41,266 nucleotides of DNA, from the IMG/VR virus record IMGVR_UViG_2534681675_000019. The stretch is one strand, 5' to 3'. This document shows positions 4,148 to 41,266 of the stretch, one piece after another (position 1 is the first letter of the stretch; every line of letters begins with the position of its first letter). This DNA is from a virus. Its lineage: Duplodnaviria > Heunggongvirae > Uroviricota > Caudoviricetes. The notes under the pieces are model-generated. The model made no database searches. It was not told the origin of the DNA and saw nothing but the letters and a program-made list of their open reading frames with translations. The position numbers were made by a program, and so were the translations under genes.

Positions 4148-4965
4148 ACGTACATATCCTGTTTACGTGCCCAGTCAGGGCGTTTAATAATTTCCACTCC
4201 GCCCCATTCATCGTTGATGCGGCATTCGTGATAGGTATTCAGATCCCGGCGGAACAGAGCGTGCCCGGCATCGACATCCGGCGCATCCAGCTCGAACACG
4301 CGTACCGGATACCGACCACAATCAATGCTTTCGCTCACGGCAAGAAAGAAAAAACCATGCGGCTGACCAGTAACCCTCATTGCGCCTTCGCGGTACATTG
4401 CGTCCTGCACGTGGTAGCGGAATTCCTCGATGTGGCGTGCAAAACGGTCCATATCTGCAACCTTTTTCACGTCGACGATCACGTTGTGCTCGTTCAGCCA
4501 TTTGTCTGGACGAATTCGGCACAACTCACCCGTATCTTCATCGTTCCAGTACATTGATGCTTCGCAGTAACCAGGTGCTTCCAACATCCAGCGTGCCGCC
4601 GGGTGAGCCATTGCGCTATCACGCATCAGCTCCAGTTTCCGCCACTGCTCGGCATCAAGTACAGTAATCCCCATATCCGCCACATCACGAAGAAATGCAT
4701 CTTCGTCAGCTTTACCTTGTTTCGTCCGACGATCGAATTTCGGCGAAACAATGAAGCGTTTGTCGAACTCTCCAGGCTCCAGAAGCAGACAGTGCAATGC
4801 GGTTCCCATATCCAGTGCAGACTTTTTCTCTTCGTCTTCTGGTGCTGCCTGAACCCATTTAAGAAGCGCCGGATTCTTGGCAACCATGTCCAGTTGCGAC
4901 TTACTCACGCCGTCCCCGGCGTGGTAGTCTTCGTTGCTGATGTCGAAATAAATTCCCGGTTTCAT
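4144..4965 (-). CDS. Phage exonuclease, PD-(D/E)XK-type partner of the annealase
   Basis: 273 aa, translationally coupled upstream of the Bet/RecT-like gene; acidic/aromatic blocks consistent with YqaJ/RecE-like nuclease folds. Assignment is mainly by synteny. Confidence 0.5.
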   Translation of the reverse strand: MKPGIYFDISNEDYHAGDGVSKSQLDMVAKNPALLKWVQAAPEDEEKKSALDMGTALHCLLLEPGEFDKRFIVSPKFDRRTKQGKADEDAFLRDVADMGITVLDAEQWRKLELMRDSAMAHPAARWMLEAPGYCEASMYWNDEDTGELCRIRPDKWLNEHNVIVDVKKVADMDRFARHIEEFRYHVQDAMYREGAMRVTGQPHGFFFLAVSESIDCGRYPVRVFELDAPDVDAGHALFRRDLNTYHECRINDEWGGVEIIKRPDWARKQDMYV

Positions 4966-5435: not shown

Positions 5436-5512
5436 TTACCGTTGAGGTAATAATTATGCGTATTTGGTTTGGTGTCAATAGATATGAGTTAAAAAAATTA
5501 CCCGTAAGGTAA
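5436..5512. promoter_or_regulatory. Leftward early promoter region with two TTACC-N5-GGTAA palindromic sites (OL-like)
   Basis: Sites at 5436-5450 (TTACCgttgaGGTAA) and 5498-5512 (TTACCcgtaaGGTAA), between the repressor terminator and the first leftward gene. Confidence 0.5.
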
Positions 5513-5525
5513 TTAAATAGACAAT

Positions 5526-5552
5526 AAAAAAGCCGCCAAATGGCGGCTTACT
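5526..5552 (-). terminator. Intrinsic terminator downstream of the repressor gene
   Basis: GC stem AGCCGCCA/TGGCGGCT at 5531-5548; on the minus strand it is followed by a TTTTTTATTG tract. Confidence 0.55.
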
Positions 5553-5569
5553 TACTGAAAAATATGATT

Positions 5570-6154
5570 TTATTGTTTGTTTTTTTCGTTCTGGTTGATG
5601 ACAAATTCAATGTAACTTTCGATCTTTGCTTTCTCGGTTTCAGGTAACAATGCGTAGCGCGAGCGGTCATAGTTGATAGTTGCAGGATCGTGCGGGTGAA
5701 TCAGTAGTTCATATCCGTGACGCCCGAATGCAGATGCAACATTCTCCAGGGTGGAAATGGAAACGCTGACCTCATTGTTTAACAGGCGGCTGATTGTCAC
5801 CTGGGCGACGCCGGATGCGCGGTGAAGTTTTCCCTGTGTTGAAAGGTCGCGGCTTTCGCTCATCCAGCGTTCCAGGTTGTGAGCCGCTAGCTGACCAATG
5901 TCGCTTGGGCCGACAGGCTGAAAACCTTCCTGAGAAAGCGAGCGATCGATATCAAGCCAGTTACGGGGTTTATTGGCGGCAGCTTCAATTTTTCGCGCAA
6001 CCTGGTCGCCGATAACCTTCTTGCCAAGAGCCCAGCGGTTTACCAGATTTGCCTGAGTTCCAAGTTTTTCTGCCATCCGCGTCTGAACACCATTGAATTC
6101 ACGGTCGATCAAGTCGTTGAGATTTTGCCTGCGGACGTCCTGGATACTTTTCAT
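5570..6154 (-). CDS. Prophage repressor, CI-like, tandem HTH, no peptidase S24 domain
   Basis: 194 aa; two XRE-type HTH segments (QTRMAEKLGTQANLVNRW and ASGVAQVTISRLLNNE); divergent from a Cro-like gene across an operator-rich spacer; no Ala-Gly/Ser-Lys autocleavage module visible. Confidence 0.7.
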   Translation of the reverse strand: MKSIQDVRRQNLNDLIDREFNGVQTRMAEKLGTQANLVNRWALGKKVIGDQVARKIEAAANKPRNWLDIDRSLSQEGFQPVGPSDIGQLAAHNLERWMSESRDLSTQGKLHRASGVAQVTISRLLNNEVSVSISTLENVASAFGRHGYELLIHPHDPATINYDRSRYALLPETEKAKIESYIEFVINQNEKNKQ

Positions 6155-6209: not shown

Positions 6210-6272
6210 TTACCCAACAGGTAAATGCACCCCATAGGTAACTATCCTTGATTTTTGTTACCTTATGGGTGA
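6210..6272. promoter_or_regulatory. Divergent immunity promoter/operator region (OR-like) with three TTACC-N5-GGTAA-type sites
   Basis: 6210-6224 TTACCcaacaGGTAA; 6227-6241 gcACCccataGGTAA (half-degenerate); 6258-6272 TTACCttatgGGTGA; between repressor start (6154) and Cro-like start (6309). Confidence 0.55.
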
Positions 6273-6308
6273 ATATTTATTATCTGAAATAAATATCAGG
6301 CAATAGCT

Positions 6309-6539
6309 ATGAGCGATAACGGACATTTCGATTTCAAAAAGCACTGGCTTGCACTTACTCCGGATGAGCGTGAAGCCTTCGCACAGGAAGCCGGAACGAC
6401 GAGTCACTATATCCAGACTCACTTAACAGGTAAGCGCAAAATGCCAGGTAAGGTATTGATGGATGGGCTTTTTAAAGCCTGTAAATCAAGACAATGGCTG
6501 CGCTCAAAAGCAGAACTGGCATACTTCTTCTACTCATGA
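6309..6539 (+). CDS. Cro-like small HTH regulator
   Basis: 76 aa; HTH-like segment FAQEAGTTSHYIQTHLTGKR; first rightward gene opposite the repressor. Confidence 0.5.
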   Translation: MSDNGHFDFKKHWLALTPDEREAFAQEAGTTSHYIQTHLTGKRKMPGKVLMDGLFKACKSRQWLRSKAELAYFFYS

Positions 6540-6560: not shown

Positions 6561-6586
6561 AGACCGCCATCCGGCGGTCTTTTCAT
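6561..6586 (+). terminator. Intrinsic terminator after the Cro-like gene (tR1-like position)
   Basis: Stem AGACCGCC/GGCGGTCT (6561-6580) followed by TTTTC. Confidence 0.6.
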
Positions 6587-6689
6587 ATCTATTCGTACCT
6601 CAAAGGTAATAAAAAACCAAATATGGTTGATCTTTTTTTTGTGTCAGCACAAAATAACCGTAATCCCAATACTAATAACAGGGCTTACC

Positions 6690-6905: not shown

Positions 6906-7697
6906 ATGAGCAGACATGCAACAGATTGGGCCTGGGAGACAGATCCAGGTAGCTCATCATTAAAGCTCATACTGCTCTCGATGGCTGACAGAGCCGATGA
7001 ATATAACCTCTGCTACCCCAGCATAGAACGCCTCGTTAAAGACACTTGCCTGAATAAAAAAACCGTGCAGGCCGGACTTATATCGCTCATGAAAATGGGG
7101 CTTATTTCAGATACCGGAGAGAGAAAGGGAGCGACGAAAAGAGTGCGGGTTTTCTCTCTTAATATAACCAAAAACGGGAACATTAAAGGCAACCGAGAAG
7201 GGGGTAATGAACCCGAAAACGGTAATGTTACCGAAAACGGGAATATACCCAAAAACGGGATGTTGAATGATCCCAAAAACGGGATCCAGAACCAGTCATA
7301 TAACCAGTCATTTAACCAAGAGAGGGAGAGCAGGACAAAAACCGGGGATTCTGTGCCTCATGACCCCGGCGCAAACAACGCCGTGATGAATAACTTTGTT
7401 CCTCCTGGTGGGCCAGGGCAATTAGGCAAATTTGTCATGCATGAACAATGGCAGCCATCAGATGACTTTCTTCGGAAAAGCTCATTGCAGGGAATCTACC
7501 TTGACAGTCTGCCAACGGCACAGGAACTTGCAGAGTTCAGAATTTACTGGATGGCTGAGGGTAAGGCATACCATCAGGCACAGTGGGAGCAGAAGCTGGC
7601 AAGGCGGCTGCAGATTAGCAGACAGAAGCTATCAACATTACCTGATAACAACGTTCCGCACTGGAACAGCCCTGAAGCATGGGAGGATTTCTTGTGA
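6906..7697 (+). CDS. Replication initiator, lambda O-like
   Basis: 263 aa; N-terminal winged-helix-like block; iteron repeats lie inside the coding sequence and encode an NG-rich linker; immediately upstream of a P-like gene. Confidence 0.65.
   Translation: MSRHATDWAWETDPGSSSLKLILLSMADRADEYNLCYPSIERLVKDTCLNKKTVQAGLISLMKMGLISDTGERKGATKRVRVFSLNITKNGNIKGNREGGNEPENGNVTENGNIPKNGMLNDPKNGIQNQSYNQSFNQERESRTKTGDSVPHDPGANNAVMNNFVPPGGPGQLGKFVMHEQWQPSDDFLRKSSLQGIYLDSLPTAQELAEFRIYWMAEGKAYHQAQWEQKLARRLQISRQKLSTLPDNNVPHWNSPEAWEDFL
7168..7286. repeat. Origin iterons: five direct repeats CC(A/G)AAAACGG(G/T)A
   Basis: Copies begin near 7168, 7213, 7231, 7249 and 7273; three consecutive copies are 18 bp apart; followed by an ACCAGTCAT x2 repeat. 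Confidence 0.6.
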
Positions 7698-8516: not shown

Positions 8517-8593
8517 TTACCTTGTAGGTAATAAAATGTTCTAATTACTATTGATTTCATGTCTTATGTGGTTTTTAATTACCTAAGGGGTAA
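8517..8593. promoter_or_regulatory. Two TTACC-N5-GGTAA sites upstream of the nin-like gene block
   Basis: 8517-8531 TTACCttgtaGGTAA and 8579-8593 TTACCtaaggGGTAA; the second overlaps the ribosome-binding region of the 8597 gene. Confidence 0.5.
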
Positions 8594-18579: not shown

Positions 18580-19572
18580 ATGACAATGTCTGTTAAAGGC
18601 TTAACTGCGCTAACGCTGGCTGACTGGGGTAAGCGCGTCGATCCAAACGGGAAAGTCGATAAGATTATCGAGCTTCTCGGTCAAACTAACCCGATCCTTC
18701 AGGATATGCCTTTTGTCGAAGGGAACCTTCCTACCGGACACCGAACCACCATTCGTTCTGGTTTACCTTCAGCTACCTGGCGTTTGCTGAACTATGGCGT
18801 ACAGCCAAGCAAATCAACCACAGTGCAGGTAACCGATTCCGTGGGCATGCTGGAAACCTATGCTGAAGTCGATAAGTCACTGGCTGATCTGAACGGCAAT
18901 ACCGCCGAATTCCGCCTGTCTGAAGACCGCGCATTTATTGAAGCGATGAATCAGCAGATGGCGCAGACGCTGTTTTATGGTGATTCCAGCGTTAACCCTC
19001 AGCAGTTTATGGGACTGTCCTCCCGCTATTCCAGCCTGTCTGCGGGTAATGCTCAGAACATCATTGATGCTGGTGGCACGGGTACAGATAACACCTCAAT
19101 CTGGTTAGTGGTGTGGGGCGAAAACACCGTGCATGGCATCTTCCCGAAAGGGCAGAAGGCTGGCATCCAGATGGAAGATAAAGGCCAGGTGACACTGGAA
19201 GATGCTAATGGCGGCAAGTACGAAGGCTATCGCACCCATTATAAATGGGATAACGGACTTGCTCTGCGTGACTGGCGTTATGTTGTTCGCATTGCAAACA
19301 TCGATGTCAGCAATCTTTCAGAACCTTCCTCTGCCGCAAATATTGCTAAGTTGATGGTTAAAGCACTGCATCGCATTCCAAACCGTGGCATGGGCCGCCC
19401 GGTGTTCTACATGAACCGCACTGTAGGCCAGGCTCTTGATCTGCAATCTCTGGAGAAAACATCTCTGGCTATCAGCGTAAAAGAGACTGAAGGCGAGTGG
19501 TGGACTTCATTCCGTGGTGTACCAATCCGTGAAACTGATGCGCTTCTGGAAACAGAAGCCCGCGTGGTGTAA
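18580..19572 (+). CDS. Major capsid protein
   Basis: 330 aa following the scaffold (alternative start ATG 18586); followed by small head genes and a terminator. Confidence 0.7.
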   Translation: MTMSVKGLTALTLADWGKRVDPNGKVDKIIELLGQTNPILQDMPFVEGNLPTGHRTTIRSGLPSATWRLLNYGVQPSKSTTVQVTDSVGMLETYAEVDKSLADLNGNTAEFRLSEDRAFIEAMNQQMAQTLFYGDSSVNPQQFMGLSSRYSSLSAGNAQNIIDAGGTGTDNTSIWLVVWGENTVHGIFPKGQKAGIQMEDKGQVTLEDANGGKYEGYRTHYKWDNGLALRDWRYVVRIANIDVSNLSEPSSAANIAKLMVKALHRIPNRGMGRPVFYMNRTVGQALDLQSLEKTSLAISVKETEGEWWTSFRGVPIRETDALLETEARVV

Positions 19573-19623
19573 CGCCTGTTATTAACCTGTGGGCCGCAAC
19601 AGGCACACTAATGGAGAAAGAAG

Positions 19624-20061
19624 ATGATCACCGACAAACTGTTGATGTTCTCCGAAGCACAGGCGGTAACTGATACCGCGGCTTCAACTGACGTAATCGA
19701 TCTCGGTCCAATTGACGGAAACCGTCGCGATATCGGTGTAGGTTACCCGCTTGAGTTTTGGGTGCTGGTTAACGAAGCCGCCACGGCAAGTGGTGAGGCA
19801 ACTGTAAACATCCAGTTGCAGACGAGTGAGAATAACAGCTCATGGTCCACTATTTATGATAGTGGCGCACTGGCAAAGGCTACCCTGACAGCAGGTAAAC
19901 GAGTTGTTTCTGCAAAGGTGCCTGCCGGTGTTCAGCGATATCTGCGTGTTAACTACTCCGTCGCAACTGGCCCACTAACGGCCGGCAAATTCACTGCGAG
20001 TATTAGTCTGGATGTTGATGCCAATACACCGTACCCGATCCGCTCAAAAGTAACTGGTTAA
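19624..20061 (+). CDS. Virion protein, possible capsid decoration
   Basis: 145 aa, GGAGAAAG Shine-Dalgarno, directly after the capsid gene. Confidence 0.4.
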   Translation: MITDKLLMFSEAQAVTDTAASTDVIDLGPIDGNRRDIGVGYPLEFWVLVNEAATASGEATVNIQLQTSENNSSWSTIYDSGALAKATLTAGKRVVSAKVPAGVQRYLRVNYSVATGPLTAGKFTASISLDVDANTPYPIRSKVTG

Positions 20062-20071
20062 GGTGATTTCG

Positions 20072-20407
20072 ATGTCAGGTGAGAAACCAAGATACCGCGT
20101 TCTGCGCCTCTCTCATATCCATAACACACTGTGGCCGGAGGGGGCAGAAATCGAATACGAAGGTGAGCCTGGTAGCGCACTGGAACCTGTTAACGATGCA
20201 GCCAGACAGGCAAAAGCAAAGGTAGTAGGAAAGGTGACTATGGCAGCAACCAGCACCAAAATCATCAACGATGTGTCAGATGATGGTGAACTGGATAAGC
20301 TCCGTGAAGAGTACGAATTGCTCTTTAACGAGAAGCCACACCATAACGCCAAAGCCGAAACGCTCCGCGAGAAGATCGCAGATAAGCGTAAAGAACTGGG
20401 CGTGTAA
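20072..20407 (+). CDS. Hypothetical virion protein
   Basis: 111 aa from ATG 20072 (AAGGTGA upstream). Confidence 0.4.
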   Translation: MSGEKPRYRVLRLSHIHNTLWPEGAEIEYEGEPGSALEPVNDAARQAKAKVVGKVTMAATSTKIINDVSDDGELDKLREEYELLFNEKPHHNAKAETLREKIADKRKELGV

Positions 20408-20423
20408 GCCTCGCGAATCAGAC

Positions 20424-20446
20424 AAGGGGCTTCGGCCCCTTTATTG
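20424..20446 (+). terminator. Intrinsic terminator after the head gene block
   Basis: Stem AGGGGC/GCCCCT with loop TTCG, followed by TTATT. Confidence 0.6.
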
Positions 20447-20457
20447 CAGGAGTGTAT

Positions 20458-20781
20458 ATGGAACTCGTAAACCTCAAAACCGGCACTGACAGCTACCAGG
20501 ATGAGAGCGGAGAAACCAGAACTCGCGATGAATACCCGTGGGGGCTGTGCATCACTCTTAATAACGACACATTGAATAAGCTGAAGGCACAACCTCAGGG
20601 CGTCGGAACAGAAGTGATGATAACTGCAAAGGCTGTTATTCGAGGCCTGTCTGCCAGAGAAACTGACGATGGTGTTAATCGCAGCGCCGATCTGCAGATC
20701 ACTGATATGGCGATCGCTCCTGTTTCCGGGGATGTAGAAAAATCAGCGGCTGAAACTCTGTACGGTAACGGAGGTGAGTGA
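20458..20781 (+). CDS. Virion structural protein
   Basis: 107 aa from ATG 20458 (GCAGGAG upstream). Confidence 0.4.
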   Translation: MELVNLKTGTDSYQDESGETRTRDEYPWGLCITLNNDTLNKLKAQPQGVGTEVMITAKAVIRGLSARETDDGVNRSADLQITDMAIAPVSGDVEKSAAETLYGNGGE

Positions 20782-21386
20782 TGGCCTCTGTAGTAGAGAT
20801 CTGTAATCGTGCGCTGTCCAATATTGGCAATAGCCGCAGCATTAACAGCCTGACGGAAGCCAGCAAGGAAGCGGGGGAATGTTCGCTGCACTTTGAGGCC
20901 TGCCGTGATGCTGTGCTTTCTGATTTTGACTGGAACTTTGCTACCAAACGCGTGGCGCTTGCAGATACGAGCAATCCACCGCCTGACTGGGAATATGCGT
21001 ACCAGTACCCGTCCGATTGTCTGCGCATTACTGAAATTATGCTTCCTGGTGTACGCAATCCAACAGCAGCAATGCGCGTTCAGTACGAAGTTGGTGCAGA
21101 CACCGACGGAACAGGAAAGTTGATCTACACAGACCAGCCGCAGGCATGGCTCAAGTATGTCTCTCGCGTTTCAGATGTGAACATGTTTGATGCCATTTTT
21201 ATGGAGGCGTTGGCCTGGCGTCTTGCGGCAGCCATTAACATGGCGCTGACTGGGAATGCGGATCTCGGTACATTTGCTCTCAATATGTACAATCGCGTGA
21301 TTCTTAGTGCTGGCTCGCATAGCCAGAATGAATCACAGGAACCACAGCCACCGGTTGACGAGTTTACCATTGCGAGGTTGTCCTGA
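20778..21386 (+). CDS. Tail tubular protein A-like (T7 gp11 position)
   Basis: 202 aa, coupled to a following ~800-aa protein, mirroring the T7 gp11/gp12 size pair; assignment by synteny. Confidence 0.4.
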   Translation: MMASVVEICNRALSNIGNSRSINSLTEASKEAGECSLHFEACRDAVLSDFDWNFATKRVALADTSNPPPDWEYAYQYPSDCLRITEIMLPGVRNPTAAMRVQYEVGADTDGTGKLIYTDQPQAWLKYVSRVSDVNMFDAIFMEALAWRLAAAINMALTGNADLGTFALNMYNRVILSAGSHSQNESQEPQPPVDEFTIARLS

Positions 21387-31637: not shown

Positions 31638-32051
31638 ATGAAGGAATTATTGCTGTTATCGGTATTTTTGATATCCGCTTGCTCGACATCCTATGATGTT
31701 TATGACGGTGTTGATAAGGCATATTGCGACAAGGTTAAAATGGATTTTTCTCTTGCCAAGACGGCGAAGGATAGTTGTATTGATCACTACGTCAAGACTT
31801 ATACCAAGTCAGCATCATCGGCATCTGATATTGCTGAAGGTGCTGTGTTTGAGTGTAACAAGGTGATATCCATCGCAGCGAGTTCTTCATACGATGCTGC
31901 TGTATGTGCAATGGCTGAAAGAAACGGCATGTCTGTGCAAAAAGTTAATAGCATGATAAACAGTAATGACGAAGCCAAAATAAGAACTGATATCAGCTCG
32001 GTGAAAAAAGATGCCATGAACAGAGTTGTAAAATATCAGTCATCTTTATAA
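31638..32051 (+). CDS. Lipoprotein (signal peptide with lipobox LISAC)
   Basis: 137 aa; MKELLLLSVFLISAC; AAGGAA Shine-Dalgarno; last gene of the late operon before a terminator. Confidence 0.6.
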   Translation: MKELLLLSVFLISACSTSYDVYDGVDKAYCDKVKMDFSLAKTAKDSCIDHYVKTYTKSASSASDIAEGAVFECNKVISIAASSSYDAAVCAMAERNGMSVQKVNSMINSNDEAKIRTDISSVKKDAMNRVVKYQSSL

Positions 32052-32090: not shown

Positions 32091-32348
32091 TTACCGGGTT
32101 TGTTTTCGTAATTGTTCGGCACAATAGTCGAGATGTGTTTGCAGATCCTGCATAGACATCTGTGAGCTGGTGACGTAGTTAATCAGTGCAGTCAGTTCGG
32201 CAAGTGGGCCATCGACATTAAATCCATCCTTATCGAGATCCCGGAGTAATTTCATCAAGTGCGATCCTTCCACCAGTGACCTGACGCCTCCCGGCGTGTG
32301 AATCCTTTCGGTAAATCCCTCTTCCAGTGGATAGTGATACTGCTGCAT
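32091..32348 (-). CDS. Small LexA-box-associated protein (antirepressor candidate)
   Basis: 85 aa from ATG 32348 (GGAG 8 nt upstream); a near-consensus LexA box lies 20 bp upstream. The 126-aa track ORF would contain the box and is rejected. Confidence 0.5.
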   Translation of the reverse strand: MQQYHYPLEEGFTERIHTPGGVRSLVEGSHLMKLLRDLDKDGFNVDGPLAELTALINYVTSSQMSMQDLQTHLDYCAEQLRKQTR

Positions 32349-32367: not shown

Positions 32368-32387
32368 AACTGTATGTTTATACAGTA
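32368..32387. promoter_or_regulatory. LexA (SOS) box
   Basis: AACTGTATGTTTATACAGTA matches TACTGTATATATATACAGTA at 17 of 20 positions, with CTGT-N8-ACAG intact and an AT-rich spacer; overlaps a TATAAA -10-like hexamer on the minus strand. Confidence 0.65.
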
Positions 32388-32424: not shown

Positions 32425-32439
32425 TCACCTGAAAGGTAA
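32425..32439. promoter_or_regulatory. TCACC-N5-GGTAA site in the divergent region between the small gene and the tailspike
   Basis: TCACCtgaaaGGTAAT; 37 bp from the LexA box. Confidence 0.45.
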
Positions 32440-32543
32440 TATCTGCTCACATTAACACTCTTTCCATCCATATATGGTTTTTCAGGTAATAGAATAACCA
32501 GATATGCGGCGCAACGGGTGCTGCGACTATCTGGAGATTTAAC

Positions 32544-34796
32544 ATGACGGTCTCAACCGAAGTTGACCACAACGAATACACAGGCAATGGCGTTACGACT
32601 TCATTCCCTTATACCTTTAGGGTTTTCAAGGAATCTGATCTGGTAGTGCAGGTGGTTGACCTTGACGAAAATATCGCTGTGCTGGCTCTTGATACTGATT
32701 ACACTGTCACTGGGGCTGGTGGATATAACGGCGGTAATGTAATTCTGTCGAAGGCGTTAGCTAACGGTTACCAGATTTCTATATCACGAGAGCTCCCGGT
32801 TACGCAGGAAACTGATTTGCGTAATCAGGGGAAGTTCTTTGCAGAAGTGCATGAGGATGCTTTTGATAAGCTAACGATGCTGATCCAGCAGGTTCGAAGT
32901 TGGTTTAGCTTGGCGCTGCGCAAGCCGTCATTCGTAGCAAATTATTATAACGCGCTGAACAACTATATTCGGAACCTGAAAGACCCGGTTAACCCGCAGG
33001 ATGCAGCCACAAAGAATTATGTGGACAGCACGGCTTTATCGAACATCAACCATACCATCCGAGTTCCTGACGCTTATATCGATCCGCTGCCACCACTCGC
33101 TCAGCTTGAAGGCAGCATTATCGGCATTCAAAACGGGAAGCCTGTTCCTTTCCCTGTGCCTTCAGGAACGGCGGCGGACGTATTCAACCAGTTGGCCAGC
33201 AGCGCTGACGGGAAAGGTGATGCGCTGATAACAGTGAAGCAGCCTTACCAGGGGGCAACTTCTCTTTCGCAGCATATAAAAAATGCACAGGCTATAAGTG
33301 TTGTTGATTTTGGAGCGACAATTGATGGATCTCTCCACCCTTTAAGTGAAGTTTTCTCAACACTCTCAGCGGCACAGATGGTATATCCATTTGTTACGTC
33401 TCTCACGCAATCGTTGGATTATGCGGCGCTGCAGGCCGCATGTAATACTGGTAAAAAGGTGCTAATCCCAAAAGGTCTTGGATATTATAATGCCACAATT
33501 ATATTTAATAATTCAGTCAGAATTGTTGGTGAAGGGACTGATGCAATAAACCGTTCTCAGTCTTTCATGTCAATTGTTGGGAATATATCAGCCTTCGCAT
33601 TAGCTCAGGGTAGCTCAACATCAACGAAAATGATCCAGATTTTCATTGATGGCCTTTATATCTTTTATAACCCTGGCTCTACCCCAACAAACTCATCAAC
33701 AGACGGCGGCAAGGTAGCTTTTAATTTCTACTCAACAGTCCCTAATTCTACTGGGCTGGAAATGTCAGAAATTAAAAATTGTACAGTTCATGGGGCGTGG
33801 TCGTGCTTTAATGACCAGACAGGAACCTATCTTACAAAGCTTACGAATGTGTGGGCCAGGAACTGTCATAATGGTTTTACCAAAGGAACTGGCACAACAA
33901 TCCTTCTGGAAAGATGTTATGCATCTGGTTGTATTTCTCCTTACCAGTTTGGTTCTGTCTTCGCGGTTACAATGATTAACTGCGCGATGGATGGATCAAA
34001 TATTTCATTAAGCGCCGGGACGCTTGGAGGGGCTGGAGTTCACATCCTTAACACGCACAGTTTCAATATTATTGGCTTTGATGCAGAGGGAAACACCATC
34101 TCTACGGATGGAGCTGGAGAAGCTGCGCTGTTCCATTTTGAGAATAGTAGTGGTGGCTTATCCGGGCTTACCGCACATCAGAACAGCATGCGAAGTGTTG
34201 CGCCAAGTGATGCTGGTGTAGTTTCCTACATCAGGGCGTCAGGTAGCAGCGATGTTAAAATTGAGTCATCAGAAGATGATTTATCTGACACCAACCCAGT
34301 TGCATATACTGGGTCTGGGTATCCCATTATGTTACATGCAATAGACACAGCTAAAATAAGTGTCTTTAATAGCCGGTTCAGAGCAACCACTACAGGAACT
34401 CCTGTTTTAAGTACGCTAAGTACTGGTGATGTATCATGGTATGACTGCCCTAAAAAAACAGGACTTATCGCCAATGGTTACTCGCAGACTACATCTCAGG
34501 AAGGGTTGCAAACATCATGCTTCTCTACCAGTAAAGGCTCTACTTCTGTGGCTGCAAATACCCCGACAACACTTTTTTCTCTGCCAAATTCTCAAGGCAC
34601 TTACATTATCAGCGTTTGGGGATCTGGTAGTGGGACAAACTATGCGTCAACGCAGTTAGCAATGTATGATGGAACTTTGTATCTTACGGCATTGAAAGCT
34701 GCAGCGTTCCTGACATTTACTGTAACCGGAAGAATAGTAACCCTGACGAGCCAGGGGGCTGGAACTTTTAGTTGGACTTACACGAAAATAGGTTAA
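32544..34796 (+). CDS. Tailspike/tail fiber with T7 gp17-like N-terminal adaptor domain
   Basis: 750 aa; N-terminal YTGNGVTTSFPYTF...TDYTV...RELPVTQETDL...AEVHEDAFDKL parallels the T7 gp17 N-terminus (from memory); the C-terminal two-thirds is visibly AT-rich and Ser/Thr/Gly/Asn-rich, consistent with a receptor-binding module. Confidence 0.7.
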   Translation: MTVSTEVDHNEYTGNGVTTSFPYTFRVFKESDLVVQVVDLDENIAVLALDTDYTVTGAGGYNGGNVILSKALANGYQISISRELPVTQETDLRNQGKFFAEVHEDAFDKLTMLIQQVRSWFSLALRKPSFVANYYNALNNYIRNLKDPVNPQDAATKNYVDSTALSNINHTIRVPDAYIDPLPPLAQLEGSIIGIQNGKPVPFPVPSGTAADVFNQLASSADGKGDALITVKQPYQGATSLSQHIKNAQAISVVDFGATIDGSLHPLSEVFSTLSAAQMVYPFVTSLTQSLDYAALQAACNTGKKVLIPKGLGYYNATIIFNNSVRIVGEGTDAINRSQSFMSIVGNISAFALAQGSSTSTKMIQIFIDGLYIFYNPGSTPTNSSTDGGKVAFNFYSTVPNSTGLEMSEIKNCTVHGAWSCFNDQTGTYLTKLTNVWARNCHNGFTKGTGTTILLERCYASGCISPYQFGSVFAVTMINCAMDGSNISLSAGTLGGAGVHILNTHSFNIIGFDAEGNTISTDGAGEAALFHFENSSGGLSGLTAHQNSMRSVAPSDAGVVSYIRASGSSDVKIESSEDDLSDTNPVAYTGSGYPIMLHAIDTAKISVFNSRFRATTTGTPVLSTLSTGDVSWYDCPKKTGLIANGYSQTTSQEGLQTSCFSTSKGSTSVAANTPTTLFSLPNSQGTYIISVWGSGSGTNYASTQLAMYDGTLYLTALKAAAFLTFTVTGRIVTLTSQGAGTFSWTYTKIG

Positions 34797-35104
34797 TGTT
34801 ATTTTAGGGGAGCGATGCTCCCCATCATCAATTAAAAAATAAACTGTCCATCATTTTTTAGTTTTTTACCAAACTCCCTTGAGCCTTCCAGAGTGAAATG
34901 GCTATTGTCAAAGTAAAGATAATCACCTTTCTTTGATAGAATGTCACAATTCATAGCCTTTCCGCACTGCTCGGCAAGCGTATCTATGTATTTATACGAA
35001 TGCTGGTTGCTACTAGACTGGCCCCCTGAATCTCCAGACAACCAGTATCACTTAAATAAGTGATAGTCTTAATACTAGTTTTTAGACTAGTCATTGGAGA
35101 ACAG

Positions 35105-35470
35105 ATGATTGATGTCTTAGGGCCGGAGAAACGCAGACGGCGTACCACACAGGAAAAGATCGCAATTGTTCAGCAGAGCTTTGAACCGGGGATGACGGTC
35201 TCCCTCGTTGCCCGGCAACATGGTGTAGCAGCCAGCCAGTTATTTCTCTGGCGTAAGCAATACCAGGAAGGAAGTCTTACTGCTGTCGCCGCCGGAGAAC
35301 AGGTTGTTCCTGCCTCTGAACTTGCTGCCGCCATGAAGCAGATTAAAGAACTCCAGCGCCTGCTCGGCAAGAAAACGATGGAAAATGAACTCCTCAAAGA
35401 AGCCGTTGAATATGGACGGGCAAAAAAGTGGATAGCGCACGCGCCCTTATTGCCCGGGGATGGGGAGTAA
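35105..35470 (+). CDS. insC: IS2 transposase OrfA (InsC)
   Basis: 121 aa, [24 protein letters not shown]...; HTH; ends just past the AAAAAAG frameshift site. Confidence 0.85.
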
Positions 35471-36333
35471 GCTTAGTCAGCCGTTGTCTCCGGGTGTCGC
35501 GTGCGCAGTTGCACGTCATTCTCAGACGAACCGATGACTGGATGGATGGCCGCCGCAGTCGTCACACTGATGATACGGATGTGCTTCTCCGTATACACCA
35601 TGTTATCGGAGAGCTGCCCACGTATGGTTATCGTCGGGTATGGGCGCTGCTTCGCAGACAGGCAGAACTTGATGGTATGCCTGCGATCAATGCCAAACGT
35701 GTTTACCGGATCATGCGCCAGAATGCGCTGTTGCTTGAGCGAAAACCTGCTGTACCGCCATCGAAACGGGCACATACAGGCAGAGTGGCCGTGAAAGAAA
35801 GCAATCAGCGATGGTGCTCTGACGGGTTCGAGTTCTGCTGTGATAACGGAGAGAGACTGCGTGTCACGTTCGCGCTGGACTGCTGTGATCGTGAGGCACT
35901 GCACTGGGCGGTCACTACCGGCGGCTTCAACAGTGAAACAGTACAGGACGTCATGCTGGGAGCGGTGGAACGCCGCTTCGGCAACGATCTTCCGTCGTCT
36001 CCAGTGGAGTGGCTGACGGATAATGGTTCATGCTACCGGGCTAATGAAACACGCCAGTTCGCCCGGATGTTGGGACTTGAACCGAAGAACACGGCGGTGC
36101 GGAGTCCGGAGAGTAACGGAATAGCAGAGAGCTTCGTGAAAACGATAAAGCGTGACTACATCAGTATCATGCCCAAACCAGACGGGTTAACGGCAGCAAA
36201 GAACCTTGCAGAGGCGTTCGAGCATTATAACGAATGGCATCCGCATAGTGCGCTGGGTTATCGCTCGCCACGGGAATATCTGCGGCAGCGGGCTTGTAAT
36301 GGGTTAAGTGATAACAGATGTCTGGAAATATAG
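35428..36333 (+). CDS. insD: IS2 transposase OrfB (InsD), DDE catalytic domain
   Basis: 301 aa, [30 protein letters not shown]...; overlaps orfA in the -1 frame at AAAAAAG (35422-35428). Confidence 0.85.
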
Positions 36334-38063
36334 GGGCAAATCCAGCTACCAAGATAGCCTTTTATCGTATTGTTAATTTCAACTCTACTATTGTCATAAT
36401 ACTTTTTAGAGTATTTATTTATCCCATCAATTGTGTTTACGCCAGATTTAAAAGCAGACTTAATTATTTCCATTGGCTGTGCCGTAAACTTCATCTTAGG
36501 CCCAAATACAATAACTTCTCCTTTAGTCCTCTCCTGTATTTTGCCTATAGAGTAAAGCATCCCGAACAGATCGCCAACGCCATAATCATCATGAAGGATT
36601 ATAATGTTAGCTTCAGCTATGGCTGGAGATGAGATCACGTCATTGAATATTTTTTTGCACTTTTCTACATAGGGCATGTCGTTTGGTGTATAACCAAAGT
36701 TTGAACATAAGTTTGTAGTTCTTATATAAGTTATATCACCCTTCATCCCATTTTCAGTAAGTGCATAAGTCAGATCTATGCCATGAGAATTACCGATTAT
36801 TACTATTTTTTTGTCACCTGTCTTCGGTACAGGGTGAGGCTTGTCTCCATCAACCCAATACCTGTTCATTTGTTCTTTTAGCTGTTCGGACGTCATTGTG
36901 GCAAACGAAAACCTTGATGGAATTCCAGATAGCAATAGTACAGCGAAGCACAAACCAACTACACCACCTACAGGTAGCACGATTGAAGTTAATTCATTCA
37001 AGGACCTGCCGTTTTTAAATTTTGAAAGTGCCTTTCTTGAAGGGTTTTCAATTAAATAAAATGATGCGGCACCAATAAGAATTGATAAGGCAACACCTGA
37101 TACTGTATAAACCATATCATCCATCTTATTCATTGACATATAGACAACTATGGGCCAGTGAACCAGATATACCGAGTATGAAATTTTCCCAACCCATTGA
37201 GATAATGCATTATCAAGTAACAGGTTATCTTTACATCCAAGATAAATGACAAAGAAAGTAGAAACGACTGGTATTAAGGCAAGATACCCAGGCCACTTCA
37301 TTAAGCTGTTAAGCAAGACTATCCCCGATACTGCAAAGGCTATGGCAATCCATCTAAATACAGCAGTGCGTTTTGAATTTTGTATAGTAGGAAGAAGGTA
37401 GGCAAGGCCGCCAGCCAGCATCTCCCAAGCTCTGCTTGACAGAAGATAAAATGCAGCCCCCTGATTATTATAAGAAAGATACACTGAGGCAGTAAATGAT
37501 ATAATTGCAAGGATGGCAACAACATACCTTATATGCTTAGCGCCCAATAGCTTTGCAATTGCCATCATTATGATTGGATATACCATGTAAAACTGCCACT
37601 CTACAGAAAGCGACCATGTATGAAGAAGCCATTTCTGCTTTGATGCAGTGTCAAAATAATCAATGCTATGGTAATACTCAACGTTTGAGAAAAATAAAAG
37701 GCTACTTCTTACGTGTTGAGCCAGGTATTCATATTCAGAAGGCAAAAGAATGAAGTAACCAACTATCAGAACAGCAACTGAAACTACAGTTAAAGCTGGT
37801 ATAATCCTTCTTGCCCTATCAAGATAAAATCCTAACAGTGAAAAGTTTCCATTAGATATCTTTGTGTAAATTATTCCAGTCATCAGATACCCTGATATAA
37901 CAAAGAATATATCTACGCCTGAAAACCCACCAGAAAACCCTTTGACTCCGAAGTGATAAAGGACAACTGCCATGACAGCAATAGCCCTGAGTCCGCCTAT
38001 ATCAGTTCTGTATTTTAAAGAAGACATAATCGCTATCGTTTTGAGTAAGATGCGTTAATGATA

Positions 38064-38078
38064 TCACCTTTAGGGTAA
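38064..38078. promoter_or_regulatory. TCACC-N5-GGTAA site in the divergent region between the acyltransferase and the lysis genes
   Basis: TCACCtttagGGTAAT. Confidence 0.45.
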
Positions 38079-39978: not shown

Positions 39979-40120
39979 CATGGCATTTTTCATGGTACTG
40001 ATTTCCGGTGACGGTATATAAAACGGTACGGGAAAAATTCATCTTTGGAAAAATGTTATCACTCAATTGGTTATGGTGTCCGTAAATAATTGAGTGGGAA
40101 TGATTTGATCCCTGCACTAT

Positions 40121-40150
40121 GAATTAGCAAAACCCTCTGTTACTACAGAG
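40121..40150. terminator. Bidirectional intrinsic terminator
   Basis: Perfect 10-bp stem AACCCTCTGT/ACAGAGGGTT with loop TACT, followed by TTTTTATA; lies between the convergent lysis operon and the 40196 gene. Confidence 0.7.
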
Positions 40151-40195
40151 GGTTTTTATACTCACGAATCATAGGATTGAAGTTACTGACATCGC

Positions 40196-40735
40196 TTAGT
40201 TAAACCAGCTGTCCGATTTGTTCTCTTCTGCTTTGCCCACGCTTTTCATCAGATCGCGACCGCCTTCAGTCATATTCCTGTTTGCGTCAGCTTCAGATTG
40301 CACCACATCGGTTTGCGCAGCTTTGTGCTTCAGTTCCTGATCGATAAATTCGTTTTCTCGCTTAACGCGGGCTTCTTCTTTCGCCAGCGCCAGTTTTTGT
40401 TTCTGAATCTCTAAGCTGCGTAGCTCATCTTCATAACTTTGATCGCGTTTCTTGTCCGCAGTGGCTTCGGCGTCCAGTTTATCCTGACGAGCTTTCTTAT
40501 TCGCCGCTGCCGTTGCCGCTCTTTTATTAGCCGCGGCCTGGGCGTTTGCGCGACGTTGCTTCTCTTGCTGGATTTCCCTGTTGCGCTCCGCGACCCATTC
40601 GTCATGCTGCCTTTGCTCTTCATTTTTACCTTGCTGTTCCGCTTCTGCGACAGCAGAGAGTTGATCCTGCAATGATGAGGCGATAGCCGGATAGCTTAAG
40701 GAGGCTAAGATGGCGCAAAGAAAAACTTTCTTCAT
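40196..40735 (-). CDS. Secreted Ala/Gln/Lys-rich coiled-coil protein (probable host or cargo gene)
   Basis: 179 aa with N-terminal signal peptide MKKVFLCAILASLSYPAIASS; GGAGGAG Shine-Dalgarno. Confidence 0.5.
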   Translation of the reverse strand: MKKVFLCAILASLSYPAIASSLQDQLSAVAEAEQQGKNEEQRQHDEWVAERNREIQQEKQRRANAQAAANKRAATAAANKKARQDKLDAEATADKKRDQSYEDELRSLEIQKQKLALAKEEARVKRENEFIDQELKHKAAQTDVVQSEADANRNMTEGGRDLMKSVGKAEENKSDSWFN

Positions 40736-40750
40736 GACTCCTCCTGATTA

Positions 40751-41266
40751 TTAGCTCTTTTCAGGACATTTGGTATTTGGCTGAATACGCGTTTCGTTAT
40801 ACGTCGTGGTAATAACAACGGCTAAACCTGTCGTAAACTGGCACTCTTTACCCACCTGGGTGGAGGTATACACTTTGGTGCCTTCCTTATACGTTAGAGA
40901 AACACCTTCCACTAAGGTTTTATCATTCACCATAGAACCTGCTGCCGCGCCAACAGCTCCGCCGCCAACTGCACCTGCCGTCGTTCCGGAATTGCTGCCA
41001 GACCCCACGTTGTGGCCGATAACACCGCCAGCGACTGCACCAATAAGCGCGCCGAAGGCTTGTGCGTTTCGTTTATTTTGGGAGTTGTCTACGGCAACTT
41101 TTGCGGGAAGAATGGAAATAATATTAACGGTTTTAGTTTCTTGTTTGGTATTCAGTTGATCGGTTTGATAAACATCGGCGGCATGATCATCAGCATTTGA
41201 CTGGCATCCTGCCAGAGTGAATGACGCTAACATTGCCACAGGCAGAAGACATTTTTTAAATTTCAT
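40751..41266 (-). CDS. Glycine-zipper outer-membrane lipoprotein (SlyB/YcfJ-like)
   Basis: 171 aa; lipobox LAGC; Gly/Ala zipper GALIGAVAGGVIGHNVGSG...; start at the window edge. Confidence 0.55.
   Translation of the reverse strand: MKFKKCLLPVAMLASFTLAGCQSNADDHAADVYQTDQLNTKQETKTVNIISILPAKVAVDNSQNKRNAQAFGALIGAVAGGVIGHNVGSGSNSGTTAGAVGGGAVGAAAGSMVNDKTLVEGVSLTYKEGTKVYTSTQVGKECQFTTGLAVVITTTYNETRIQPNTKCPEKS

Follow-up and report, generated by a model that had tools for sequence, protein, structure and literature searches.

The closest described counterpart of the repressor considered here is the Rep/Ant switch of the Salmonella phage SPC32H. From the 2013 work of Kim and Ryu, SPC32H Rep reportedly stays uncleaved in the SOS response, and LexA is said to repress the antirepressor gene ant from a site that overlaps the promoter of this gene. 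Changing one base of the LexA site is said to yield a constitutively lytic phage, SPC32N, and Ant is reportedly distinct in structure from Tum-type antirepressors. For Salmonella prophages, a review (citing Kim and Ryu 2013) gives the order of events as self-cleavage of LexA, synthesis of Ant and inhibition of the repressor. The structural literature divides SPC32H Rep into an N-terminal DNA-binding domain (DBD), a middle dimerisation domain (MDD) and a C-terminal CAD/TetDloop, the last of which both forms tetramers and binds Ant (PMC9986798). Rep is described as sitting on DNA as a tetramer whose DBD pairs are drawn from different dimers; Ant, itself a tetramer, breaks the Rep tetramer by binding two dimers of Rep (PMC9638917).

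A repressor identical to the one under study is recorded in the phages phiV10 (Perry et al. 2009) and vB_EcoP_ZX5. The phiV10 GenBank record describes p40 as ‘putative transcriptional repressor; two helix-turn-helix motifs (PF01381); similar to putative repressor epsilon15p38’. Overexpression of ZX5 ORF21 abolished free phage and brought transcription of endolysin and holin down by 99.99% and 99.97%, respectively (Li et al. 2022, PMC9782041). Public records and papers already cover the Rep protein, its annotation with two helix-turn-helix (HTH) motifs, its action as a repressor and the antirepressor mechanism used in its family. What is still missing from public annotation is the link between the phiV10-type rep and ant genes and the solved Rep–Ant system.

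The DNA analysed here, referred to as the window, is a stretch of 41,266 nucleotides (IMG/VR record IMGVR_UViG_2534681675_000019). It is collinear with phiV10 across most of its length, has an integrase gene at its start and carries at 40089–40105 the attachment core ATTGAGTGGGAATGATT, which phiV10, epsilon15 and ZX5 are reported to use as their attP/attB core (PMC9782041). These features mark the window as an integrated prophage of E. coli, of the phiV10/epsilon15-like (Uetakevirus) type. The rep gene is an ATG-started open reading frame of 194 aa on the minus strand (5570–6154, with the stop codon at 5570–5572), exactly where the earlier note had placed an immunity repressor divergent from a Cro-like gene. 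At the 3′ end of rep lies a hairpin resembling an intrinsic terminator (5530–5549, minus strand), in the same place as an annotated terminator of phiV10. The divergent cro-like gene encodes 76 aa (6309–6539, plus strand; PHROG 35 ‘transcriptional repressor’, E 8.7e-13) and is followed by its own terminator (6561–6580), and 3′ of it come a DnaT/O-like replication gene and a lambda-P-like helicase loader. This order of rep, cro-like and replication genes identifies the immunity region of a temperate phage. The DNA of the region is 97–98% identical to that of phiV10, the O157 typing phages 9 and 10, vB_EcoP_ZX5 and others, and the region occurs in 541 of 5426 complete E. coli genomes. At the protein level the identity is 100% with phiV10 p40, with the proteins of O157 typing phages 9 and 10, with the ZX5 repressor and with others. 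Because the identical ZX5 protein has been tested by overexpression, the gene can be assigned as that of the repressor, and the immunity function proposed earlier is upheld on two counts: identity to ZX5 ORF21, whose overexpression blocks lytic growth, and homology to SPC32H Rep. The product of 5570–6154, Rep, is the immunity repressor of the prophage and belongs to the SPC32H Rep family, for which structures have been solved.

Rep and SPC32H Rep are 42% identical over their full length (BLASTP E 2e-53). A phmmer search aligns aa 1–190 of Rep with 5D50, the Rep–Ant complex (5d50_A; E 4e-42), and 5D4Z, which holds residues 92–198 of SPC32H Rep, is aligned by the middle domain and C-terminus (E 4e-20). 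Taken module by module, identity is 54% in the N-terminal domain, 35% in the middle domain and 53% in the C-terminal module. The features of the SPC32H-type family that can be read from sequence are all present: full-length homology, a layout of three modules, an Ant with a LexA box, operators and synteny. Further homologues of Rep form 86 clusters found in enterobacteria, and since the full-length members are likewise ∼190–200 aa long, the short length of Rep and its lack of an S24 domain are native and not the outcome of truncation.

The earlier note had described Rep as a protein of two XRE-type HTH segments. Both segments are supported by Pfam: HTH_3 matches two stretches of Rep with 38.5 bits against a cut-off of 23, the best stretch being aa 106–147, which places the protein in the XRE/HTH_3 superfamily (PF01381) above the gathering threshold. 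A Cro/YdaS-type HTH (YdaS_toxin) is matched at aa 21–61, and PHROG repressor families cover aa 1–76. The N-terminal Cro/YdaS-type domain (aa 1–72; 5939–6154, minus strand) is the presumed operator-reading DBD. The middle HTH_3-like domain (aa 86–152; 5699–5899, minus strand) is the equivalent of the SPC32H MDD. The two-segment description left out a third module, at the C-terminus (aa 153–194; 5573–5698, minus strand), which is the equivalent of the CAD/TetDloop tetramerisation and Ant-binding domain. A cryptic S24 or other sensor domain had been named as the finding that would speak against the earlier note; S24 is absent, and these last ∼40 residues are in effect a sensor domain of the other kind. 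In the solved relative the second HTH is a dimerisation module and the third module receives the inducing signal, and by analogy the same division of labour is predicted for Rep.

An AlphaFold2 model of Rep, built from 34 family members (mean pLDDT 73), has the same architecture. Four helices form the N-terminal domain (aa 4–59, pLDDT 81–89), an acidic linker (aa 73–83) is disordered, five helices make up the HTH_3-like domain (aa 86–151), and a long helix (aa 172–193) closes the chain. When the model was compared with the PDB using Foldseek, the best twelve matches were to 5D50 and 5D4Z, followed by generic XRE-family HTH proteins, and the middle domain scored TM 0.65–0.73 (normalised to the target). 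An internal duplication was considered as the origin of the two HTHs and discarded: BLASTP of aa 1–72 against aa 84–152 returned no alignment at E ≤ 100. Lacking pairwise similarity, the two are therefore different HTH subtypes. Membership of the RstR family of CTXphi (NCBIfam NF041951) was likewise rejected, the score being 19.7 bits against a cut-off of 80 and confined to aa 106–192, which amounts to a distant resemblance.

Rep has none of the equipment of a self-cleaving repressor. Neither Peptidase_S24 nor any other peptidase domain has a Pfam match in the protein at E ≤ 1, NCBIfam gives none above its cut-offs, and there is no Ala-Gly or Cys-Gly dipeptide anywhere in the sequence. Both hallmarks of the S24 autocleaving family, the S24 domain with its Ser/Lys dyad and the cleavage site in the linker, are absent, and all 194 residues are accounted for by three non-S24 modules. 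The absence of the domain and of an AG/CG site means that Rep cannot be an autocleaving repressor of the CI/LexA type. The observation that there is neither an S24 module nor an Ala-Gly site, and the deduction that another mechanism of induction is needed, thus both stand as first put forward. No gene for an ImmA/COG2856-type protease adjoins rep.

It is conceivable that immunity is conferred by a different gene, with Rep a mere accessory regulator, or that RecA promotes cleavage of Rep at a non-canonical site. The Cro-like protein and other small HTH proteins in the neighbourhood leave some room for the former. Against this, overexpression of the identical protein of ZX5 stops the lytic cycle (PMC9782041), the gene occupies the canonical position, facing away from cro and flanked by the early-left operon on one side and the early-right operon on the other, and its homologue in SPC32H is the protein that bears the name Rep. 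As for cleavage, there is no known route to RecA-stimulated self-cleavage without an S24 catalytic domain. Either version is extremely improbable, and Rep is treated below as the immunity repressor, presumably uncleaved, in keeping with the missing S24 domain and AG/CG site.

The palindromes of 15 bp that the earlier note mentions throughout the prophage do exist, in numbers well above chance. Allowing up to one mismatch, TTACC-N5-GGTAA is found at 13 places in the window where 0.78 would be expected, and none of 100 shuffles reached 13. The count is 18 in SPC32H and 14 in phiV10, and the sites are syntenic across five phages. The consensus of 73 sites from these five phages is a 17-bp sequence, (A)TTACC-[A/T-rich 5]-GGTAA(T).

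The sites lie where the operators of a phage repressor would be sought. To the left of rep, the OL pair (5436–5512) consists of two perfect palindromes at 5436–5450 and 5498–5512, whose starts are 62 bp apart. The pair brackets a promoter-like site that points left, a short way past the end of rep, with a -35 element TTGACA from 5478 and a -10 element ending at 5450, and an OL pair with 62/63-bp spacing is found also in phiV10, Tyrion, SPC32H and BUCT711. The OR cluster in the gap between rep and the cro-like gene (6210–6272) comprises a perfect site at 6210–6224, one with two mismatches at 6227–6241 and one with a single mismatch at 6258–6272. The last overlaps the -35 element of a rightward promoter-like site at 6255–6283. 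The spacing in the cluster is 17 + 31 bp, compared with 17 + 30 bp in SPC32H.

Beyond the immunity region, a single operator-like palindrome lies past the terminator of the cro-like gene (6595–6609) and is syntenic in phiV10 and Tyrion. A pair in the gap between the P-like loader and the DUF1064 gene (8517–8593; sites at 8517–8531 and 8579–8593) again has starts 62 bp apart and is present in all four comparison phages. Two palindromes stand at the head of the packaging/structural operon (12410–12442; sites at 12410–12424 and 12428–12442); these are syntenic in phiV10 and Tyrion, and SPC32H has one site, upstream of terS. A palindrome upstream of the portal operon (15575–15589) is syntenic in the other phages, and one separating the acyltransferase gene from the lysis cassette (38064–38078) is syntenic in phiV10, Tyrion and SPC32H. 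Judged by position and synteny, TTACC-N5-GGTAA is likely the operator of Rep and not that of the Cro-like protein or another factor. Each of the 62-bp pairs, which span about six helical turns, could be bridged by one Rep tetramer. The conservation of the spacing fits the tetramer with two DBD pairs described in PMC9638917.

The tandem-HTH layout had also been taken to suggest that both HTH domains of each subunit touch DNA, the second helping to read the long palindromes or a motif beside them. Dimerisation and DNA binding can go together in HTH_3 domains, and the middle domain of Rep retains a canonical HTH_3 signature (Pfam 38.5 bits), with Q118 and R123 of its third helix invariant within the closer family. 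It also aligns weakly with stand-alone repressors of the RstR type from CTXphi (NCBIfam 19.7 bits) and with the stand-alone family phrog_13326 (E 3e-23), and given this likeness the ancestor of the domain may have bound DNA. The operators themselves point the other way. Position counts over the 73 sites revealed no second conserved motif beside the palindromes, the flanks and spacer being merely A/T-rich, so that only the 17-bp palindrome is conserved in the five phages, and half-site centres 10 bp apart fit one HTH per half-site. The third helix of the N-terminal domain, NLVNRW, is invariant in the Reps of the window, Tyrion, BUCT711 and SPC32H, all of which share the operator half-site, whereas in the same four proteins (42–100% identical) the third helix of the middle domain varies: QVTISRLL, QNTVSRML, QATVNRIL and PATVNRIM. 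Charge is distributed in the same sense, with a net +5 and a pI of 10.3 for the N-terminal domain (family mean +4.1) and a net charge of 0 for the middle domain of this Rep. In the solved homologue, the N-terminal domain is described as the DBD and the middle domain as serving dimerisation (PMC9986798).

Bipartite recognition of this kind is therefore unlikely, and the proposed tie between a tandem-HTH reading and the 15-bp palindromes finds no support, given the missing second motif and the contrast between the invariant and the variable third helix. The palindromes are ordinary symmetric operators which a pair of N-terminal domains can explain. An intermediate possibility, that the middle domain dimerises and still contacts DNA, for instance by clamping the A/T-rich DNA between operators spaced 62 bp apart, is about equally improbable. 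If it were true, each Rep tetramer would present eight HTH units to DNA, which would extend the published SPC32H model. The reading preferred here has the N-terminal domains alone on the operator and the middle domain as dimerisation module.

The candidate inducer of such a repressor is encoded ∼26 kb from rep within the prophage. A tblastn search of the window with SPC32H Ant gave one strong match (32097–32345, minus strand, 89% identical), corresponding to a gene, ant, for an 85-aa antirepressor (32091–32348, minus strand; 89% identical to SPC32H Ant). The product matches chain E of 5D50 (E 1.6e-47), has no Pfam family match, and is 96% identical to phiV10 p24, there annotated as hypothetical. 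A near-consensus LexA box, ACTGTATGTTTATACAGT, lies at 32369–32386, 20 bp upstream of the ant start codon, and the window has no other near-consensus LexA site, where chance alone would give 0.00. The region upstream of ant was aligned for the window, phiV10, the Enterobacter phage Tyrion, SPC32H and the Klebsiella phage BUCT711, which between them represent four host genera. The box is kept in phiV10, Tyrion and SPC32H and has one mismatch in BUCT711. A consensus promoter scan returned no promoter for ant; the conserved alignment suggests a -35 element TGGATA and a -10 element TACTGT that would overlap the LexA box. About 40 bp upstream of the box, in the intergenic region between ant and the tailspike gene, stands a Rep-type operator with one mismatch (32425–32439), kept in all five aligned phages. 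If this operator controls ant, Ant would derepress its own gene, making induction self-reinforcing.

The LexA box upstream of an ant homologue makes SOS-dependent induction, passing from LexA through Ant to Rep, the most likely route by analogy with SPC32H. It is in keeping with an SOS-linked route that a DNA-damaging microcin induced phiV10-species prophages 21- and 47-fold in gut E. coli isolates. The open reading frame at 31638–32051 (plus strand), at the position where a second antirepressor might have lain, proved unrelated to phiV10 p23 and Tyrion gp20 and was rejected as such.

Rep might instead be inactivated by another factor, such as an antirepressor of the Bro-N type or a dedicated protease, with the ant homologue irrelevant or serving another role. 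Related phages do have a second gene resembling an antirepressor: Tyrion gp20 combines Bro-N with an Ant-like C-terminal domain, and phiV10 p23/p22 is a frameshifted copy. In addition, overexpression of the Bro-N protein ORF4 of ZX5 lowered lysogeny (PMC9782041). The window, however, holds no Bro-N gene, since tblastn with phiV10 p23 and Tyrion gp20 matched ant only, and beside rep there is no gene for an ImmA/COG2856-type protease. The small ant with its LexA box is common to all five compared phages, and Ant is the experimentally established inducer in SPC32H, as the review and the PDB complex 5D50 attest. An inducer other than Ant is accordingly very unlikely, and the route through LexA and Ant is retained.

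Put together, the locus very probably encodes an SPC32H-type switch: a Rep of three modules, its operators, a LexA-controlled Ant as inducer and a repressor that is inactivated without being cleaved. The present analysis supplies the homology, the arrangement of domains, the lack of S24, the ant gene and its LexA box, and the statistics and synteny of the operators; repressor function, the tetramer, Ant binding and LexA control come from the literature on homologues or on the identical protein. In the proposed mechanism, the basic N-terminal Cro-type HTH domain would read the operator, the middle HTH_3-like domain would act as dimerisation module, and the short C-terminal domain would join two Rep dimers into a tetramer and offer the docking site for Ant. 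Pairs of N-terminal domains would bind the 15–17-bp palindromes at PL, at PR/PRM and before most other transcription units. LexA would meanwhile occupy the box that appears to overlap the ant promoter. Upon DNA damage LexA would cleave itself and Ant would be made; Ant would then bind Rep and take the tetramer off the DNA, opening the way to lytic growth with Rep uncleaved.

Several consequences would follow from the Rep–Ant link. It would explain how common phiV10-type prophages respond to DNA damage without a self-cleaving repressor. It also has value for annotation, as such prophages label ant a ‘hypothetical protein’ and rep only a ‘helix-turn-helix protein’. A further prediction is that operators, and perhaps cross-talk between antirepressors, are held in common with relatives in Salmonella, Enterobacter and Klebsiella.

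Among the known systems, the SPC32H Rep/Ant switch is nearest. The two share a homologous Rep of like length and three modules, an Ant that is 89% identical, a LexA box upstream of ant, the operator palindrome and its positions in the genome, and a genome architecture of the Uetakevirus type. They differ in host, E. coli here and Salmonella for SPC32H, in the central bases of the LexA box, and in Rep, which has diverged most in its middle domain. With Rep 42% and Ant 89% identical to their SPC32H counterparts, the fit between the two proteins in the E. coli phage is a prediction from sequence. The repressors of phiV10 (p40) and ZX5 (ORF21) are 100% identical to Rep, yet the records and papers on these phages draw no link between the repressor and an SPC32H-type Ant. 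The anti-repressor discussed in the ZX5 study is the Bro-N protein and not the small Ant, and neither SPC32H nor LexA is mentioned there (PMC9782041). The window departs from both phages in having no Bro-N gene.

The S24 repressors of the lambda CI/LexA type resemble Rep in role and in position within the immunity region, divergent from cro and with multiple operators at PL and PR, but Rep lacks their S24 domain, Ala-Gly site and Ser/Lys dyad. Rep would also oligomerise differently: by analogy with SPC32H Rep (PMC9986798), an HTH-like domain would make the dimers and a short further domain the tetramers. The coliphage 186 CI/Tum pair and the Salmonella prophages Gifsy and Fels-2 (Lemire et al. 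2011) share with the present locus a repressor that is not cleavable, a small antirepressor repressed by LexA and inactivation through protein–protein contact. Neither Rep nor Ant has detectable homology to the components of the 186 Tum, Gifsy or Fels-2 systems, so that the likeness is one of analogous mechanism, not of membership.

Operator palindromes of the form TTACC-N5-GGTAA are paired at two positions that are syntenic among five phages infecting four host genera, with a start-to-start spacing of 62 bp (63 bp once). The pairs lie at 5436-5512 and 8517-8593 in the window, 33604-33680 and 35972-36048 in Salmonella phage SPC32H, 31953-32029 and 35070-35146 in phiV10, 34195-34271 and 37265-37341 in Enterobacter phage Tyrion, and 4210-4286 and 7124-7201 in Klebsiella phage BUCT711. 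The 62 bp spacing corresponds to about six helical turns, and operators paired in this way would suit bridging by one tetramer of the immunity repressor, Rep. Nearly every transcription unit has its own palindrome, those for packaging, portal, lysis and integrase among them, and direct repression of late genes by Rep is thus possible.

At the packaging unit, the longest terS open reading frame in the window begins at 12346 and the start matching the phiV10 annotation is at 12365. Two palindromes (12410 and 12428) fall within 12346-12445. The equivalent palindromes of Tyrion are upstream of its annotated terS start, as is the single equivalent in SPC32H. In the window, translation of terS may instead begin from the ATG near 12445.

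The intergenic region between the tailspike gene and ant, the gene of the small antirepressor, holds a second block kept in all five phages: CATTCTATTACC…AAACC.TATATG. It lies at window 32485-32495 (minus-strand motif ATTCTATTACC) and includes one TTACC half-site, ∼50 bp from the full operator; the block may serve as a promoter for the tailspike gene or as a weak operator.

A 137-aa ORF (window 31638-32051, plus strand) occupies the place of the phiV10 Bro-N gene; it has no Pfam matches above threshold, its N-terminus carries a lipoprotein-like signal (…LISAC…), and the ORF may represent a moron or have a role in lysogenic conversion. An IS element at ∼35004-36334, with ends that we take to be those of IS2, sits between the tailspike gene and an oac-like acyltransferase gene and encodes an IS3-family transposase (rve, HTH_21). 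The acyltransferase ORF (36258-38027, minus strand, 589 aa) extends into the IS end, and the alignment of SPC32H Oac to its product stops at residue 531 of 620; the C-terminal end of this O-antigen acyltransferase has probably been cut off by the IS element. The window opens at the integrase start, with attL outside it. The attachment core ATTGAGTGGGAATGATT is at 40089-40105, and to its right are two minus-strand genes, DUF5384 (40196-40735) and a glycine-zipper/TraT-like gene (40751-41266), presumably host flank within the region 40089-41266.

Tyrion gp20 (20417-21121, minus strand), annotated ‘anti-repressor’, looks like a Bro-N/Ant fusion by sequence, because its N-terminal part is 73% identical to phiV10 p23 (annotated Bro-N) and the last ∼80 aa at the C-terminus share 38% identity with the small Ant. 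In phiV10 a frameshift splits the counterpart into p23 and p22 (19551-20230, minus strand), and the window is without any copy of this gene in either form. Between the window prophage and SPC32H, the antirepressor is far more conserved than its target: Ant (window 32091-32348) is 89% identical, whereas Rep (window 5570-6154) is only 42% identical (N-terminal domain 54%, middle domain 35%, C-terminal module 53%), which suggests that cross-induction is possible among Uetakevirus prophages of different hosts.
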